DNA from: an uncultured Dehalococcoidaceae bacterium
GTDB taxonomy: Bacteria > Chloroflexota > Dehalococcoidia > Dehalococcoidales > RBG-16-60-22
Length of the DNA stretch: 26,265 bases
NCBI GenBank assembly: GCA_964404475.1
Contig: CAYOKF010000002.1
Coordinates: 1 to 26,265 of the forward strand
Reading direction: 5' to 3'
The position numbers and the translations under genes are program-made. Of the stretch, positions 20,720 to 26,265 are shown in pieces (within the stretch, counting starts at the first letter, position 1; each line of letters begins with the position of its first letter). Under the pieces are notes generated by a model, which was not told the DNA's origin, made no database searches, and saw only the letters and a list, made by a program, of their open reading frames with translations.

Positions 20720-22440
20720 TTCTCCTCCGTACCGATGATTTGGGCACCCATCTTCAGAACTGCCTCAACCAAGTGATTATCCTCTTTTTCACATACACAG
20801 CGTACACGGCAGGAGCGCCCCAGAAAGTGGCTGATGATTTGTTCAGCCATCTTCTGATTTTCAATTTTCTCCATATTTTCTTTGTGCAACGGGAATTTAA
20901 AGGATAGTACCAGCGTGTCTGCCTCCATGGTTTTGGGTTTGGCACTCCTGAGCAGGGCAGCGGCCGGAGTCCGGCCCAGGCCATCCGGAGCATCTTTGAT
21001 GAATTGCCGCCAGTTGGTTACCAGCCGGGCGATTTCGTCCGTTGTCCCGGTTTTCTCAAGCTGCTTATCCGTGTCTCTGGTTTCTGGCTCTGGTTCAAGA
21101 GAATTAGCTGGCTCGGTTTCTGTTGCCTCCGATTGTACTGCTGGCTCTGGTTGAACAGGACTAGATGGCGCGATTTCATTTGCTTCCTGTTGTTTTATTA
21201 ACGCAGTTTCAGTTTTGTTTGGTTGTTTTACTGGCTCAACCGCTTGCTTAACAGGTTCGGGGTTGGCTGGCTGCTGTTTGGGAGTGGGTATGGTGGATGG
21301 GATGGTCTCCTTGTTATCTTCTTTAGTTTTGACTTGACTGACTGGTTCATTCTCCTTTTCCTCCGGAGGAAGCGTGCATTCCACCAGGGCTAATTCCAGG
21401 GGTAGCGTGGAATAGTTGTTAAAGCCATTATCCAGACTGCTGAAGAGCTTGACCGCTTTCAGCAATTGGGGTAATGATGCTCGGGTAGCCAGTTCTTTTA
21501 TTTCAACTGTGTCTTCAGTGGTCAGGTCAATGGCTTCATCAGAGCCAGTTTTAATTAGCATCAGCAACCTCAGATACTCAACCAGCTCCCGGTTGAACTG
21601 GCGCAGGTCCAGCCCGTCATTATTAACGCTGTTGATGGTGGTGATGCCGGCAGAAACCTCATTATCTATGATATTTCTCACCAGCTCTTTGGCGCGCCAG
21701 TCGCCAGTAATACCCAGCAAGTTTTGCGCTTGCTGGAGTCCAATATCAGTACCGTAATATGTGGTCAGCTGTTGCAGCAGGTTCTCCGCGTCCCGCAGGC
21801 TGCCGGTGGTTGCCCTGGCAATTAGCCGCAGTGCTTCCGGCTCGATTTGAATGCCCTCAGTACTACAGATATGGGTAAGTTTGTCAACTACATCTGCCTG
21901 GGCAATGCGCCGGAAGTCAAAGCGCTGGCAGCGCGACATTATGGTGGGCAGGACTTTGTGGGACTCGGTTGTTGCCAGGATAAAGATAACCTGTGGCGGC
22001 GGTTCCTCCAGCGTTTTAAGCAGCGCATTAGAAGCGCTGTTACTCAGCATGTGCACTTCATCGATGATATAAACCTTATAGCGAGCCTGATTGGGGGCGT
22101 AGTTGACCTTCTCACGAAGGCTGCGGATATCATCAACACCGGTATTGCTGGCAGCATCAATTTCAATGACATCAATAGCGCTGCCATCGGTTATTGCCTG
22201 GCAGATGGCGCATGTATTGCATGGCTCGCCTTTGCCGTCATTAGTCAGGCAATTTACTGCTTTGGACAGAATACGTCCGGTGCTTGTCTTGCCGGTGCCA
22301 CGGGGACCACAAAACAGGTAAGCATGAGAGACGCGCTGGCTACCTAAGGCATTGAGTAGAGTCTGTGTTACTTGCTGCTGACCCACTACCTCAGCCAGGG
22401 TTTGAGGGCGCCACTTCCGATATAAGACCTGGGCAGTCAT
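20716..22440 (-). CDS. dnaX: DNA polymerase III subunit gamma/tau
   Basis: Motifs LYRKWRPQ, GPRGTGKTS, EIDAASNTGVDDIR, IIDEVHMLS, LLKTLEEPP and SRCQRF, followed by a Pro/Glu-rich linker and a C-terminal domain. Confidence 0.97.
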   Translation of the reverse strand: MTAQVLYRKWRPQTLAEVVGQQQVTQTLLNALGSQRVSHAYLFCGPRGTGKTSTGRILSKAVNCLTNDGKGEPCNTCAICQAITDGSAIDVIEIDAASNTGVDDIRSLREKVNYAPNQARYKVYIIDEVHMLSNSASNALLKTLEEPPPQVIFILATTESHKVLPTIMSRCQRFDFRRIAQADVVDKLTHICSTEGIQIEPEALRLIARATTGSLRDAENLLQQLTTYYGTDIGLQQAQNLLGITGDWRAKELVRNIIDNEVSAGITTINSVNNDGLDLRQFNRELVEYLRLLMLIKTGSDEAIDLTTEDTVEIKELATRASLPQLLKAVKLFSSLDNGFNNYSTLPLELALVECTLPPEEKENEPVSQVKTKEDNKETIPSTIPTPKQQPANPEPVKQAVEPVKQPNKTETALIKQQEANEIAPSSPVQPEPAVQSEATETEPANSLEPEPETRDTDKQLEKTGTTDEIARLVTNWRQFIKDAPDGLGRTPAAALLRSAKPKTMEADTLVLSFKFPLHKENMEKIENQKMAEQIISHFLGRSCRVRCVCEKEDNHLVEAVLKMGAQIIGTEEK

Positions 22441-22665
22441 TTCTTGCTTGTTATATTATACATTATATTTCGCCTTTGCTAAAGATATACTGGCGTGATT
22501 GCCGCTATAAATGTGAAATACAGGAACACTGGCATTAAAACTTGCCATAATACGGAAACGGATATCTTCAGAGCGGGAATACCAACAATTACCTGCCAAA
22601 GACCAGCAAAACTATGCCTTTACGGTAGGCAGAAAGGCCACTTAAAAGTTAATTACTCTGGTTAA

Positions 22666-23841
22666 TTACAGTAATGAGGGTATATCTTTAGCTGCGTCTT
22701 CGATTGCTCTCAGCTTAACTTCGGTTTCTTCCTGCCTCTGTCTGAAACGGGGAATAAGACCGCTTGACTGGAGATAATAGTCCCTCACCTTTTCCACATC
22801 GCTCAGCTCAGAAAGAAGTACCGTGACGTCAAGTATGCCTTTTTCTCTGGGGTAATCGCCATTCCTGATGATAGCCTCCGGCGCCAGGTCCCGCATATAG
22901 TCGCCCAGTTCCTTAACCATGTCCATATTCATTTCCTTGCTTGGACCGGAGACAAGGTAAAGGGCTCTCCTTGAATCTACCGGGCTACACTTGAGTGAGA
23001 GTTCACTGATGGCTTCATCCATGGCCTGAATGCCTTTCTGAATTTCCTGGCTCTTCTTGCGGAAGTCACTTCCCCAGTCTCGGGGAAATCTGATTAACGG
23101 AACTGATGCTTTACCATAACCAATCACCGTCCAGCCGACCAGTGTCTGGATAATATCACCGGCATCAAGGAGCTTGGCACCGATATATTTGGACTTTTTC
23201 TCTTCACCGGCACAGAGCACGTTATAGAATGGTTCAACCATCATTGCGTTTATTTTAGTTAAATTGTTGGCCAGAGATGAATCCTTTCTGACATATCTCT
23301 GGTTATCAACCAGAAAAACAGCATCTGCAACACTGTAGGCAGATTTAAGGCAGGTGGCGACGTTATAGACTGTCCTTTCCTCGGTGGTTTCTTCATGTTC
23401 AAAGGGGAGGACAATAAGATTGTAGACTGGTTTATCAACATAACGTTCTTTTATGGTTTGTGTTATTACGCCAATGGAACCAGAGCCGGTACCGCCCGCC
23501 GAAGAAGCAATGAGCAGGAAGGCGTCTGTTTCGAAGAAACGCTTGGTAGTTCTTATGGCATCAATTACCTTATCCGCATCATCTTTGGCAATCTCTGCTC
23601 CCAACTCGTTGATCTTCCCCACACCATGCCCACCGGTTTTACGGCCACCAATCAGGATCCGGTTACGATAGCCTTTTTTGATACTGGTCAGTCCACTGAG
23701 ATCAGCAGCATCACTATTAACCGCAAAGGTACCGGTGATTATATCGATCCCGCGCCGGCTATGGGCTCTCGCGTTCATACGGGAAAACTCGTCAGCAATC
23801 CTGCCGCCACATTGCCCTAAACCTACAACCACTAATTTCAT
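22666..23841 (-). CDS. Tubulin/FtsZ superfamily GTPase, CetZ-like rather than canonical FtsZ
   Basis: T1 loop GLGQCGGRIA, GHGVG, signature SSAGGTGSG, PVYNLIVLP, VDN, T7-equivalent LDAGDIIQTL and GDYP. SD GAGGTG. Confidence 0.88.
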   Translation of the reverse strand: MKLVVVGLGQCGGRIADEFSRMNARAHSRRGIDIITGTFAVNSDAADLSGLTSIKKGYRNRILIGGRKTGGHGVGKINELGAEIAKDDADKVIDAIRTTKRFFETDAFLLIASSAGGTGSGSIGVITQTIKERYVDKPVYNLIVLPFEHEETTEERTVYNVATCLKSAYSVADAVFLVDNQRYVRKDSSLANNLTKINAMMVEPFYNVLCAGEEKKSKYIGAKLLDAGDIIQTLVGWTVIGYGKASVPLIRFPRDWGSDFRKKSQEIQKGIQAMDEAISELSLKCSPVDSRRALYLVSGPSKEMNMDMVKELGDYMRDLAPEAIIRNGDYPREKGILDVTVLLSELSDVEKVRDYYLQSSGLIPRFRQRQEETEVKLRAIEDAAKDIPSLL

Positions 23842-23868
23842 TTTTTCACCTCAGAAGTATTGAGTTAG

Positions 23869-24011
23869 GCTATTTTTACCACAGTTACATGAAAATGTCA
23901 ATTCTTATGTTGGGAATAATATAGTACAATAGTGCTACAAAAAAATATATTAGTAGATACCTATGGTTATTGAAAATCTGGGTGTCCTATAATAGAATGA
24001 GTAAAAATAGC
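23869..24011. promoter_or_regulatory. Divergent promoter region with an inverted 11-bp GTAAAAATAGC box
   Basis: Minus strand: TTGACA (23901-23896), N17, TAAAAA with an upstream TG. Plus strand: TTGAAA (23970-23975), N17, TAGAAT (23993-23998). The box lies at 23869-23879 (-) and 24001-24011 (+). Confidence 0.5.
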
Positions 24012-24027: not shown

Positions 24028-26265
24028 TTGTCTGCTGAATTACGCGAGGATGTGGAAGGTAATATCGGGGCTTTTGAGAAAGCCGTAGCCAGGGCCGAAG
24101 TGCTAAGCAAAGCTGCACGCGAGGCGGCTGAGGTTTCAACGAAGGCTGCTCAAGATGCAATAAGGCGGGCGGAGAAAATAAGCCGTGAGTCTAAAGAGGC
24201 AGCCGAGGCGTCAGCACGGGCTGCGCAGGAAACGATAGACAGGGCTGAGAAAATAGCCAGGGAGGCTCAGGAATCCGCCTTGGCCGCTATAAAAACTGCG
24301 CAAGAAGCGGTAAGCCGTGCCGAGGAGGCGGCCAAAGCTCCAAAAGATACAGCCAAAGCAACGACCGCAGCCTTTCAGGAAGCAATAAAACGTGCTGAAG
24401 AAATAAGCAAGGAAGCTATGGAAGCGGCTGAGATTTCTCTGCGAACTTCTCAAGAAGGATTAGCCAATGTTGAGGAGATAAGCCAGGGAGCTAAAGAGGC
24501 GGCGGAGACAGCTAGAAAGGCTTCACAGGACGCGGTAAGAAGGGCCGATGAAGCGGGCAAGGCAGCCAAGGAAGCTTCCGAGGTATCGGTACGGGCCTCA
24601 CGGGAAGCGACCAACCGTGCTGAAAAGGCTAGCCGGGAAGCTAAAGTATCCAGTGATGAAGCCACTAAAGCTGCCCAGGAAGCAGCTAGCCGGGCGGAAA
24701 GAACAAGTAAAACGGTCAGGGAGTCAGCGGAGGCAGCGGCAAGGGCTGTCCAGGAATCAAGTAACCGCGCTGAAGCAACGAGCAAACTGGCTAGAGAAGT
24801 TGCTGACGCTTCGTTGAAGGCTTCTCAGGGTATAATCGCGCGTACGGAGCAGATAAGTAAAGAGTCAAAAGAAGCTGCCGAGACGTCAAGAAGAGAAAAC
24901 CGGGAGGCATTAAGCAAGATTGCAGAAGTAGAGAGAGAGACCAGGGAATCAACCGAATCATTGCTTAGGATGTCACAGGAATCTGTAGAGACAGCGAAGG
25001 GAGTTTCCCAAGAGGCAATAAAACGGGCTGAAGAGGTTGGCCAGGAAGCCAGAGAGTCAGCGGAAACATCCGCCAGGCTTTTCCAGGAGGAACTCGCCAG
25101 AATAGAAGAAATTAACCGGGAGACCAGGGAAGCAATCGAGGCATCATTAAAGGAATCTCAGGAAGCATCCGAAAAGTCAATTGAAGCCTCACGTGAAGCG
25201 ATAGAGAAATCAGCTGAGGCCTCACGTGAAGCGATGGAGAAATCAGCTGAGGCCTCACGTGAAGCGATGGAGAAATCAGCTGAGGCCTCACGTGAAGCGA
25301 TAGAGAAATCAGCTGAGGCCTCACGTGAAGCAACTGAAGAGACAGCTAGAACCTCGCGGGAGGCTAGCGAAGAAGCAGTTAAAGCCTCTCAGGAAGCAAT
25401 AGCACGGGCTGAAGAGATCGGTAGAGAGGCCAGGGAAATGACAGAAGCATCTACCAAGGAATTCCGGGAAGCAATCACCAGAGCCGAGGAGATAAATCGT
25501 GAGGTCAGGGAAAATACCGGCACGTTAGCTGAAACGGTAAGGGAGGCGATTGAATCAGTAGCCAGGGAATCTCAGGAAGCAATCGCGAATATGGAGGAAA
25601 TGAGTAAATCTGCCAGGGACAAAGCTGAAGAATCGGTGGGCGTGGTTAAGGAGGCGACTGAGGCAGCAGCCAGTGCTGCCCGGGAGGCGGCGGAGGAGGC
25701 GAACAGGGAATTCCAGGAGGCAATAAAGCGGACTGAAGAGATTAGCAATGAAGCGAGGCAGATGGCTGAGTCAGCTACCAGAGAAGCTGAAGAGATGATA
25801 GCTTCATTAAAGTTAGCCGCTGAGGAATCGGCTGATTCGACAATAAAAGCGACCAGAGAAGCGGCTGAAGCGGCGACAAAAGTCGCTCAGGAAGCGGCGA
25901 GGATGTCAATCAAAGCCTTTGAGGAAACGATAAGCCGGGCGGAGGCGACGGGTAAAATAGCGCGAGAGGTAGCCGAAACGTCATTCAAGTCTTTTGAAGA
26001 TATGATTAAGAAGGCTGTCGTGAAGGGTGAAGCCCCCGTAAAAGGTGGTGGCGAGCCGCCGGAGGAATTGCCTGAAAAAGAGGTGGACAGAGAAGTTAAA
26101 ATTACCAAAAAGGCTGATAAACCTTCCGAAGCATCGATTAGAGTGTTTAAGGATGCGATAAAGCGTACCGGCAAGGCTGAGCCGAAGGAAAATCAGCCAC
26201 TGGCGGGAGCAAAGGGGGAAATTGATGCCCGTTTGGAATTCTTAGCCAAAATGTATGAGGAAAAG
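24028..26265 (+). CDS. Giant Ala/Glu/Arg/Ser-rich coiled-coil repeat protein, at least 746 aa, 3'-truncated and absent from the ORF track
   Basis: I translated frame +1 by hand. TTG at 24028 follows an in-frame TAA, and there is no stop up to 26265 (MSAELREDVEGNIGAFEKAVARAEVL...EIDARLEFLAKMYEEK). It is built of 25-aa and 11-aa modules, with no signal peptide or TM segment. Confidence 0.9.
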   Translation, partial: MSAELREDVEGNIGAFEKAVARAEVLSKAAREAAEVSTKAAQDAIRRAEKISRESKEAAEASARAAQETIDRAEKIAREAQESALAAIKTAQEAVSRAEEAAKAPKDTAKATTAAFQEAIKRAEEISKEAMEAAEISLRTSQEGLANVEEISQGAKEAAETARKASQDAVRRADEAGKAAKEASEVSVRASREATNRAEKASREAKVSSDEATKAAQEAASRAERTSKTVRESAEAAARAVQESSNRAEATSKLAREVADASLKASQGIIARTEQISKESKEAAETSRRENREALSKIAEVERETRESTESLLRMSQESVETAKGVSQEAIKRAEEVGQEARESAETSARLFQEELARIEEINRETREAIEASLKESQEASEKSIEASREAIEKSAEASREAMEKSAEASREAMEKSAEASREAIEKSAEASREATEETARTSREASEEAVKASQEAIARAEEIGREAREMTEASTKEFREAITRAEEINREVRENTGTLAETVREAIESVARESQEAIANMEEMSKSARDKAEESVGVVKEATEAAASAAREAAEEANREFQEAIKRTEEISNEARQMAESATREAEEMIASLKLAAEESADSTIKATREAAEAATKVAQEAARMSIKAFEETISRAEATGKIAREVAETSFKSFEDMIKKAVVKGEAPVKGGGEPPEELPEKEVDREVKITKKADKPSEASIRVFKDAIKRTGKAEPKENQPLAGAKGEIDARLEFLAKMYEEK
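24076..25995 (+). repeat. Degenerate modular repeat array: 19 x 75-bp (25-aa) and 15 x 33-bp (11-aa) units
   Basis: The motif (Q/R)EAI.RAEEI recurs every 75 nt at 24076, 24151, ... 24901, then at 25009, 25084, 25390, 25465, 25573, 25714 and 25921. The gaps between these are exact multiples of 33 nt. Confidence 0.85.
25183..25331 (+). repeat. Near-perfect 33-bp tandem repeat, about 4.5 copies (EASREA[I/M]EKSA)
   Basis: Unit GAGGCCTCACGTGAAGCGAT[A/G]GAGAAATCAGCT at 25183, 25216, 25249, 25282 and a partial copy at 25315. Confidence 0.95.

Follow-up and report, generated by a model that had tools for sequence, protein, structure and literature searches.

A Bacterial CetZ-Type Protein of the Dehalococcoidia: Family Identity, Distribution and Possible Role in the Shape of Wall-Less Cells

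Introduction

Reviews of the CetZ proteins call this family archaea-specific (PMC9856176, PMC11621097), and it is treated as a third branch of the tubulin superfamily restricted to archaea. A gene carried by a bacterial contig raises two questions: does it really encode a CetZ, and what could such a protein do in a bacterium? The gene (22666..23841, - strand) lies in a stretch of 26,265 nucleotides, called the window hereafter, that corresponds to contig C2 (CAYOKF010000002.1) of a 1.89-Mb bin of an uncultured Dehalococcoidaceae bacterium (347 contigs, 90.7% complete, 7.6% estimated contamination). Its open reading frame (ORF) starts with an ATG preceded by GAGGTG 6 nt upstream and encodes 391 amino acids followed by a stop codon. 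A first-pass annotation had proposed that the product is a CetZ-like tubulin homolog unrelated to division, possibly acquired from archaea or an ancient paralog.

Santana-Molina et al. (2023) devote one or two sentences to CetZ-like "Chloroflexota-Dehalococcoidia" groups, described as "sparse paraphyletic groups", and report that a hidden Markov model of the CetZ C-terminal domain matches bacterial Chloroflexota sequences (PMC9871819). These groups are the same clade as the protein analysed here. Our literature search retrieved nothing on the paralogue pair of this clade, its rod partners, its tail or its restriction to genomes lacking SEDS and MreB. The existence of a large and strongly conserved bacterial sister clade broadens the picture of an archaea-specific family and opens a second, independent route to the role of CetZ filaments. 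As cultivated Dehalococcoides and Dehalogenimonas carry the gene, biochemistry and cryo-tomography are feasible. The clade is also relevant to the way a definite disc shape is maintained in bacteria without a wall, and to the exchange of cell-biology machines between domains that involves Chloroflexota, as for the archaellum (PMC12488501).

Family Identity

The Pfam Tubulin/FtsZ GTPase domain (PF00091) is found at residues 3-182 with 105 bits (cut-off 33) and is followed, at residues 188-354, by the CetZ_C domain (PF21011), with 58.3 bits for a gathering score of 21.6. This is the architecture of the archaeal CetZ of known structure. Among all PDB sequences, the best match is CetZ1 from Haloferax volcanii (4B46; E 3.5e-39, residues 1-374), followed by CetZ2 (4B45; 1.1e-24) and by the CetZ of Methanosaeta thermophila (3ZID; 7.6e-14), the best FtsZ reaching only 5e-9. 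No full-length similarity to tubulins was found in this search, which revealed only partial matches within the GTPase domain, around residues 70-250 (AtubA, 5e-8; BtubB, 1.8e-6; gamma-tubulin, about 2e-5). In the same way, the AlphaFold2 model obtained from a 41-sequence alignment (pLDDT 94.7, pTM 0.92) has CetZ1, CetZ2 and 3ZID at ranks 1-4 of a Foldseek search, with target template-modelling (TM) scores of 0.92 for CetZ1 and 0.94 for CetZ2 and a root-mean-square deviation of about 2 Å. Some fifty FtsZ structures come behind, with TM scores of about 0.84. On the basis of domain profile, PDB search and fold, it is near certain that the gene encodes a bacterial CetZ-type protein, as had been proposed.

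The distance to FtsZ is large. The protein obtains 50.8 bits against the NCBIfam FtsZ equivalog TIGR00065, whose cut-off is 295.2, and many source annotations name its close homologues "cell division GTPase FtsZ". The same genome carries, on contig C108, a canonical mraZ-rsmH-ftsA-ftsZ cluster whose FtsZ reaches 415.4 bits against this model and whose FtsA is likewise recognised by Pfam models (138 and 92 bits). The gene is thus neither the only FtsZ-related gene of its genome nor part of a division and cell wall (dcw) cluster, its neighbours being dnaX and the gene of a rod protein described below. The FtsZ from C108 is 26% identical to the CetZ-like protein and has a GLGGGGCN loop. More generally, bacterial FtsZs share with this protein the superfamily fold, and the core of its terminal tail, D-[IV]-P-S-[LF]-[LM], resembles the local FtsZ peptide, but they have a GGGGxN T1 loop, a long disordered linker and a dcw linkage, none of which is found here, and they lack its additional C-terminal helix.

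Nucleotide-Binding and Catalytic Motifs

All the motifs listed by the first-pass annotation are present in the translation. The T1 nucleotide-binding loop GLGQCGG (residues 7-13; 23803..23823, - strand) is followed by the GGHGVG..NELGAE segment (residues 70-83) and by the T4 tubulin signature AGGTGSG (residues 115-121; 23479..23499, - strand), of which G116 and G119 are invariant in alignment A1 and G117, T118, S120 and G121 nearly so. The three GTP-binding loops GQCGG, GGTGSG and VDNQ are therefore found together with the T7 loop LDAGDIIQTL (residues 225-234; 23140..23169, - strand). The HMMER alignment to 4B46 corroborates the proposed resemblance of two of these segments to CetZ: GHGVGKINELGAE faces GHGVGADNELGAE of CetZ1, and DAGDIIQTL faces DSSEIINTL, with D226 and D229 opposite D215 and E218. 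The latter is the T7 residue targeted in GTPase mutants of CetZ1 (bioRxiv 10.1101/2024.04.08.588506).

These motifs are family signatures and not chance resemblances, since they are kept in most of the 120 closest database homologues, which are 80-93% identical to the protein (GLGQCG in 111, LDAGDII in 106 and the KDIPSLL end in 106). As read from the translation, the nucleotide-binding and T7 catalytic elements are all intact. Intact loops and a T7 acidic residue provide all that a polymerisation-activated GTPase would need, an activity that we infer from these elements. Comparison with four orthologues gives 0.11-0.16 non-synonymous differences per site for saturated synonymous ones (0.75-0.81), which indicates strong purifying selection. 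The G+C content is 0.44-0.47 over the gene (interval 22001-24000 of the window), compared with about 0.50-0.53 in most of the window; as the gene is conserved in the whole order, this low value is no sign of a recent transfer.

Phylogeny and Origin

The maximum-likelihood tree includes 86 sequences: 50%-identity representatives of the matches obtained among 1.8 billion cluster representatives, translations of the loci, the sequences of CetZ1, CetZ2 and 3ZID as given in the PDB alignments, and four FtsZ from Dehalococcoidia. Tubulins, TubZ, BtubA/B, archaeal FtsZ1/2 and labelled CetZ from Thermococcales, which mark the boundary of the canonical archaeal CetZ clade (PMC9856176), were left out. 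FtsZ is separated from CetZ and CetZ-like proteins with 100/100 support, the root lying on a long branch, and the protein does not branch within bacterial FtsZ. CetZ1, CetZ2, 3ZID and proteins labelled Nitrososphaerales and Bathyarchaeia group in an archaeal clade of 43 rows (99/98), and the Dehalococcoidia-type sequences fall outside it. When all 39 Dehalococcoidia-type rows, several of which were assigned by clade alone, are forced to be monophyletic, the likelihood is better than that of the free search and this topology is not rejected (p-AU 0.745), whereas the same groups had been called paraphyletic by Santana-Molina et al. The simplest reading of these sequences is that bacterial and archaeal CetZ are reciprocal sister groups and that a duplication within the bacterial group gave two paralogues, A (the window gene) and B. 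On this reading, the protein is not a divergent FtsZ, nor was it recently transferred from any of the archaeal lineages sampled, the bacterial clade being sister to the sampled archaeal CetZ and not nested within them. Either of the two origins put forward by the first-pass annotation would fit.

Judging from the aligned loops and C-termini, the bacterial clade has its own signature, made of GQCG, AGGTGSG and a tail containing a proline. GQCG is found in 25 of the 39 Dehalococcoidia-type rows and GQAG in 25 of the 43 archaeal ones; AGGTGSG is carried by 22 of the former and GGGTGSG by 28 of the latter. The GQCG loop had been considered tubulin-like. It is indeed present but it is not specific to tubulins, since four of the 43 archaeal CetZ-type proteins, including 3ZID, also have it. 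Apart from these differences and from the bacterial nature of the host, the protein shares with archaeal CetZ the GHGVG..NELGAE segment, the D-x-x-[DE] pattern of T7 and a short hydrophobic tail behind a C-terminal helix.

A distinct case is found in another genome of the class (G242), where locus L071 (5495-6550) encodes a CetZ of 352 residues with a much higher CetZ_C score (123.6 bits) and an archaeal-type N-terminus, GIGQAGGRVVDLLAYH. Its neighbours look bacterial, as judged by their N-terminal sequences alone. This gene may result from a separate and more recent archaeal transfer.

Distribution and Wall Machinery

CetZ_C was detected in 39 of 41 genomes from the same family or order, including all 18 high-quality ones, usually in two copies, although some complete genomes (G107, G313) have a single one. 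In a sample of 401 Chloroflexota genomes evenly spread over the phylum, the family is carried by 28 genomes, i.e., the genome under study, 15 of the 16 others of the order and 12 of the 29 others of the class. All these carriers belong to the class Dehalococcoidia, and CetZ_C is absent from both genomes retained as "same phylum" and from the 353 remaining genomes of the sample. The SEDS polymerase (PF01098) is found in none of the 28 carriers, in five of the 18 non-carriers of the class and in both out-of-class genomes. MreB (TIGR00904) is also missing from the 28 carriers and is found in the same five non-carriers and in both out-of-class genomes. The CetZ-like clade is thus restricted to Dehalococcoidia without SEDS and MreB.

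Canonical FtsZ is encoded by all 52 class-level genomes, often twice, and FtsA by all 28 carriers, while SepF was not found in any of the 46 genomes searched. In the genome under study, a second and partial rsmH-ftsA-ftsZ group lies on C219 (1-1840); compared with the copies on C108 (1714-4134), its FtsZ is 80% identical and its FtsA 85%. As the closed genome G033 likewise carries two ftsA-ftsZ pairs (L073, L074), bin contamination alone probably does not account for this duplication, which is likely to be genuine in the order. The one sampled order member devoid of the CetZ-like gene, G305, has four ftsZ and four ftsA matches, an expansion that may compensate for the lack of the gene.

Proteins nearly identical to the window product are labelled Chloroflexota or Dehalococcoidales. 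A scan of a genome collection with an 11-sequence alignment gave named loci, the best 80 of which are labelled Dehalococcoidia, Dehalococcoidales or Dehalococcoidaceae, except for a few broader or probably wrong labels. For example, locus L088 (JAUVYB010000005.1), which encodes an orthologue with 71% identity, is titled "Deltaproteobacteria bacterium", a label that is probably wrong.

Other families of the class carry a divergent type of 369-372 residues (L064:12966-14072, L065:4763-5878, L067:6714-7826), with a GDCG or GRCG T1 loop and no DIPSLL-type tail. In each case, three ORFs located beside it may, judging by size and N-terminus, encode AMMECR1, Memo and radical-SAM proteins. In families f23 and f24, the CetZ-like gene lies beside genes of secreted IPT/TIG proteins of 530-600 residues (L066:7713-9512, L068:2696-4297). 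These proteins have hydrophobic N-termini resembling signal peptides and may be components of the cell surface or S-layer.

The C-Terminal Tail and the M-Loop Segment

The AlphaFold2 model ends with a predicted long helix (residues 350-384, 35 residues as assigned by DSSP; 22690..22794, - strand), directly followed, without a long flexible linker, by the putative docking peptide KDIPSLL (residues 385-391; 22669..22689, - strand). The most constant feature of both paralogues across the class is their extreme C-terminus, D-[IV]-P-[ST]-L-[LI]; throughout the order, A and B alike have KDIPSLL-type tails, which are also present in most of the 80 named Dehalococcoidia loci. The first-pass annotation saw in this tail an echo of the FtsZ C-terminal peptide (DIPAFL). 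The core of that peptide (D/E-I/V-P-x-F/Y-L) does match: the FtsZ of the same genome ends in LDMPSFLRR, those of the class in ELD[VM]P[SA]F[LM]R[RK], and a D-hydrophobic-P-S-hydrophobic-hydrophobic core is common to both tails, although KDIPSLL abuts a predicted helix. However, a [DE]-[IL]-x-x-L-[LF] tail is common in archaeal CetZ, about a dozen CetZ-type representatives from archaea ending in D-I-x-x-L-[LF]. Furthermore, the LESLF tail of CetZ1 is needed for function and rod formation and may touch the neighbouring subunit (bioRxiv 10.1101/2024.04.08.588506). Such tails suggest that KDIPSLL is probably an ancestral docking peptide of the superfamily rather than a loan from FtsZ.

The M-loop of CetZ1 is needed for rod formation too (bioRxiv 10.1101/2024.04.08.588506). 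Alignment with this long M-loop identifies an equivalent, shorter, hydrophobic and basic segment, VPLIRFPRDWGSDFRKK (residues 247-263; 23053..23103, - strand). It corresponds to the sole internal dip of confidence of the AlphaFold2 model (block mean 67). Its hydrophobic and aromatic pattern is kept within each paralogue, and hydrophobic residues are also present in the archaeal segment. It recalls the functionally essential M-loop of CetZ1.

A Second Paralogue and a Helical Rod Protein

The genome carries a second CetZ-like gene on contig C206. It shares 69% identity with the window copy and has the same KDIPSLL end; the T7 acidic residue is kept in both. The first 25 nt of C206 match the last 25 nt of the window at 24 positions, and C206 completes the ORF that leaves the window, whose product ends in KMYEEKQNKTEDNESEESLGEEE. 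Contig C206 is therefore the continuation of the window. This overlap and the recurrence of the two-copy layout in relatives led us to reject the idea that the second paralogue results from contamination of the bin.

This ORF (24028..26265, + strand) encodes an Ala/Glu-rich, alpha-helical rod protein, with 746 amino acids in the window and a stop 17 codons into C206, hence 763 residues in total. Its 25-residue repeat shows up as peaks of identity at offsets of 25, 50, 75 and 11, and its hydrophobic residues recur with a period of about 3.6. A Pfam search with this protein gave no family above threshold, the only matches being sub-threshold ones to Phasin_2 and ApoLp-III. The order gap > CetZ-like B < small acidic protein < rod > CetZ-like A > dnaX > ybaB > recR is found in six genomes of the same family, where B ends in IKDIPSLL and A in SKDIPSLL, the small acidic protein has about 175 residues (ending in EQAWQIYSKIAR) and the rod protein 650-820. 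The window holds the right half of this four-gene block and C206 its left half. Further families of the order have variants of the block, as does a single additional family of the class (f24, locus L069), and the archaeal relative L062 differs by having no rod-protein neighbour.

In a crude composition test of the 80 named loci, 27 had an Ala/Glu-rich ORF no more than 5 kb away, 15 had a second tubulin-like ORF and 24 had dnaX. A rod gene that would always adjoin the CetZ-like gene is thus not what is observed. An obligate A/B heteropolymer comparable to alpha/beta-tubulin is also weakened, by the T7 acidic residue of both copies and by the complete single-copy genomes. In this respect the clade differs from BtubA/BtubB of Prosthecobacter. 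The latter are likewise a pair of non-FtsZ tubulin-superfamily proteins from a narrow bacterial lineage with a helical-repeat partner (bklc), and both systems are thought to involve inter-domain transfer (PMC9871819). However, BtubA and BtubB are true tubulins that form mini-microtubules, and the match of the CetZ-like protein to BtubB is only partial.

Possible Functions

On balance, by analogy with archaeal CetZ, we lean towards a role of the CetZ-like protein as a cytoskeleton of cell shape or envelope in wall-less cells. With GTP it would assemble into head-to-tail polymers in which D229 of one subunit would complete the active site of the adjacent one. Filaments lying beneath the membrane would help to establish or maintain cell shape and the envelope, and would replace the missing MreB/peptidoglycan system in a role like that of CetZ1 in Haloferax. 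KDIPSLL, which follows the C-terminal helix, would serve as a docking site. Its first candidate partner is FtsA, since carrier genomes encode no other known receptor for FtsZ-type tails; co-encoded rod proteins or the neighbouring subunit come second. A proteomic study of Dehalococcoides mccartyi BTF08 detected an "FtsZ/Tubulin GTPase", btf_0551, distinct from FtsZ (btf_0595). Both btf_0551 and a nearby hypothetical protein are abundant in disc-shaped cells from pure cultures and lower or not quantified in barrel-shaped cells from co-cultures (PMC8163811). The closed genome G033, with one CetZ-like gene and one ftsZ about 49 kb apart, is consistent with these two locus tags.

Several points weigh against this reading. 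Among the 18 non-carriers of the class, 13 also lack SEDS, so that the protein is not required for wall-less life, and the correlation with the loss of the wall reflects few evolutionary events. Rod genes lie near the CetZ-like gene in only the 27 loci mentioned above, and the complete single-copy genomes indicate that the rod is not obligatory, nor is a heteropolymer of A and B. Without a long linker before the tail, the geometry of a docking on FtsA would differ from that of FtsZ. Lastly, btf_0551 is a candidate orthologue, and FtsZ fell together with it in co-culture, which fits a division role equally well (PMC8163811).

An accessory role in division is indeed the most serious competitor, even if we regard it as rather unlikely. 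CetZ-like proteins would join the FtsZ ring through an FtsA-binding tail and help to constrict a cell devoid of septal wall synthesis, in a way resembling the dual FtsZ1/FtsZ2 system of wall-less archaea. The likeness of the tail to the local FtsZ peptide, the universality of FtsA in carriers that lack SepF and the ftsA-ftsZ duplications seen in many Dehalococcoidales are all compatible with it, as is the joint decrease of FtsZ and the tubulin-like protein in co-cultures of D. mccartyi, where a ring-shaped septum was seen (PMC8163811). However, every genome keeps a canonical FtsZ, none of the loci read places the CetZ-like gene with dcw genes, and G305 divides with FtsZ and FtsA only. Furthermore, CetZ1 and CetZ2, the nearest relatives to have been characterised, serve in shape and motility and not in division (PMC9856176). 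The protein could instead be a scaffold positioning surface machines (archaellum, pili, S-layer, IPT/TIG proteins) rather than a general determinant of shape, as proposed for CetZ1 in the motility of Haloferax, where it affects the placement of the archaellum (PMC11621097). This seems improbable: archaellin genes were found in only nine of the 32 carriers searched, with adjacency in one genome, and the CetZ-like gene is nearly universal in the order, including non-motile genomes of the Dehalococcoides type. Four archaellin-family (PF01917) genes are nevertheless present in the genome under study (e.g., C232:2408-2872 and C11:13592-15565). In the relative G014, an archaellin gene (L023:10432-11010, 93.9 bits) lies directly downstream of the A orthologue, and the IPT/TIG genes adjoin the CetZ-like gene in other families of the class.

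The location of the gene directly upstream of dnaX, in a dnaX-ybaB-recR neighbourhood that gave dnaX adjacency in 24 of the 80 named loci, could evoke a TubZ-like filament involved in DNA segregation or linked to replication. We give very little credit to this possibility. Tubulin_2 (PF13809, the TubZ/PhuZ model) only matches a short stretch, below threshold (13.5 bits for a cut-off of 27), sites resembling a promoter and a terminator of its own flank the gene, the linkage to dnaX is lost in most of the class, and neither a TubR-like gene nor centromere-like repeats were seen. A divergent FtsZ paralogue, suggested by the names given to homologues, or an archaeal contaminant contig, suggested by the estimated contamination of the bin, is hardly credible. 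The failure of the FtsZ model and the 100/100 split of the tree dispose of the former, whereas the latter conflicts with the bacterial dnaX, recR and F1-ATPase-sized ORFs of the same contig and with orthologues in closed single-contig genomes of Dehalococcoidales.

The shape or envelope cytoskeleton that we favour could be extended into a more complete but speculative scenario, whose conjunction of elements we find doubtful. The two paralogues and the helical rods would form a self-contained membrane skeleton that took over the control of shape when peptidoglycan and MreB were lost, and whose FtsZ-type tail would bind FtsA. The position of the clade as sister to all sampled archaeal CetZ would then reflect a very early passage between domains or a bacterial origin.

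Regulatory Signals and Repeats

The CetZ-like gene is preceded by a sigma-70-like promoter (TTGACA-18-AAAAAT; 23872..23901, - strand) that matches the consensus at 10 of 12 positions and whose TTGACA and -10 regions are kept in six relatives. A terminator-like hairpin, recognized by match to the consensus only, is located between this gene and dnaX (22615..22631, - strand). The divergent rod gene has its own putative sigma-70-like promoter (TTGAAA-17-TAGAAT; 23970..23998, + strand), identified by consensus match, with a TTGAAAA motif and a TATAAT-like box conserved in relatives. The region of the two divergent promoters contains an 11-bp inverted repeat, GCTATTTTTAC / GTAAAAATAGC, at 23869-23879 and 24001-24011. 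A shared operator is unlikely, because the left copy coincides with the tubulin gene's conserved -10 region and the right one is absent in the six relatives. Within the rod gene, a near-perfect tandem repeat of 33 nt (25182-25331; 4.5 copies, 97% matches) encodes the 11-residue unit SREAMEKSAEA.

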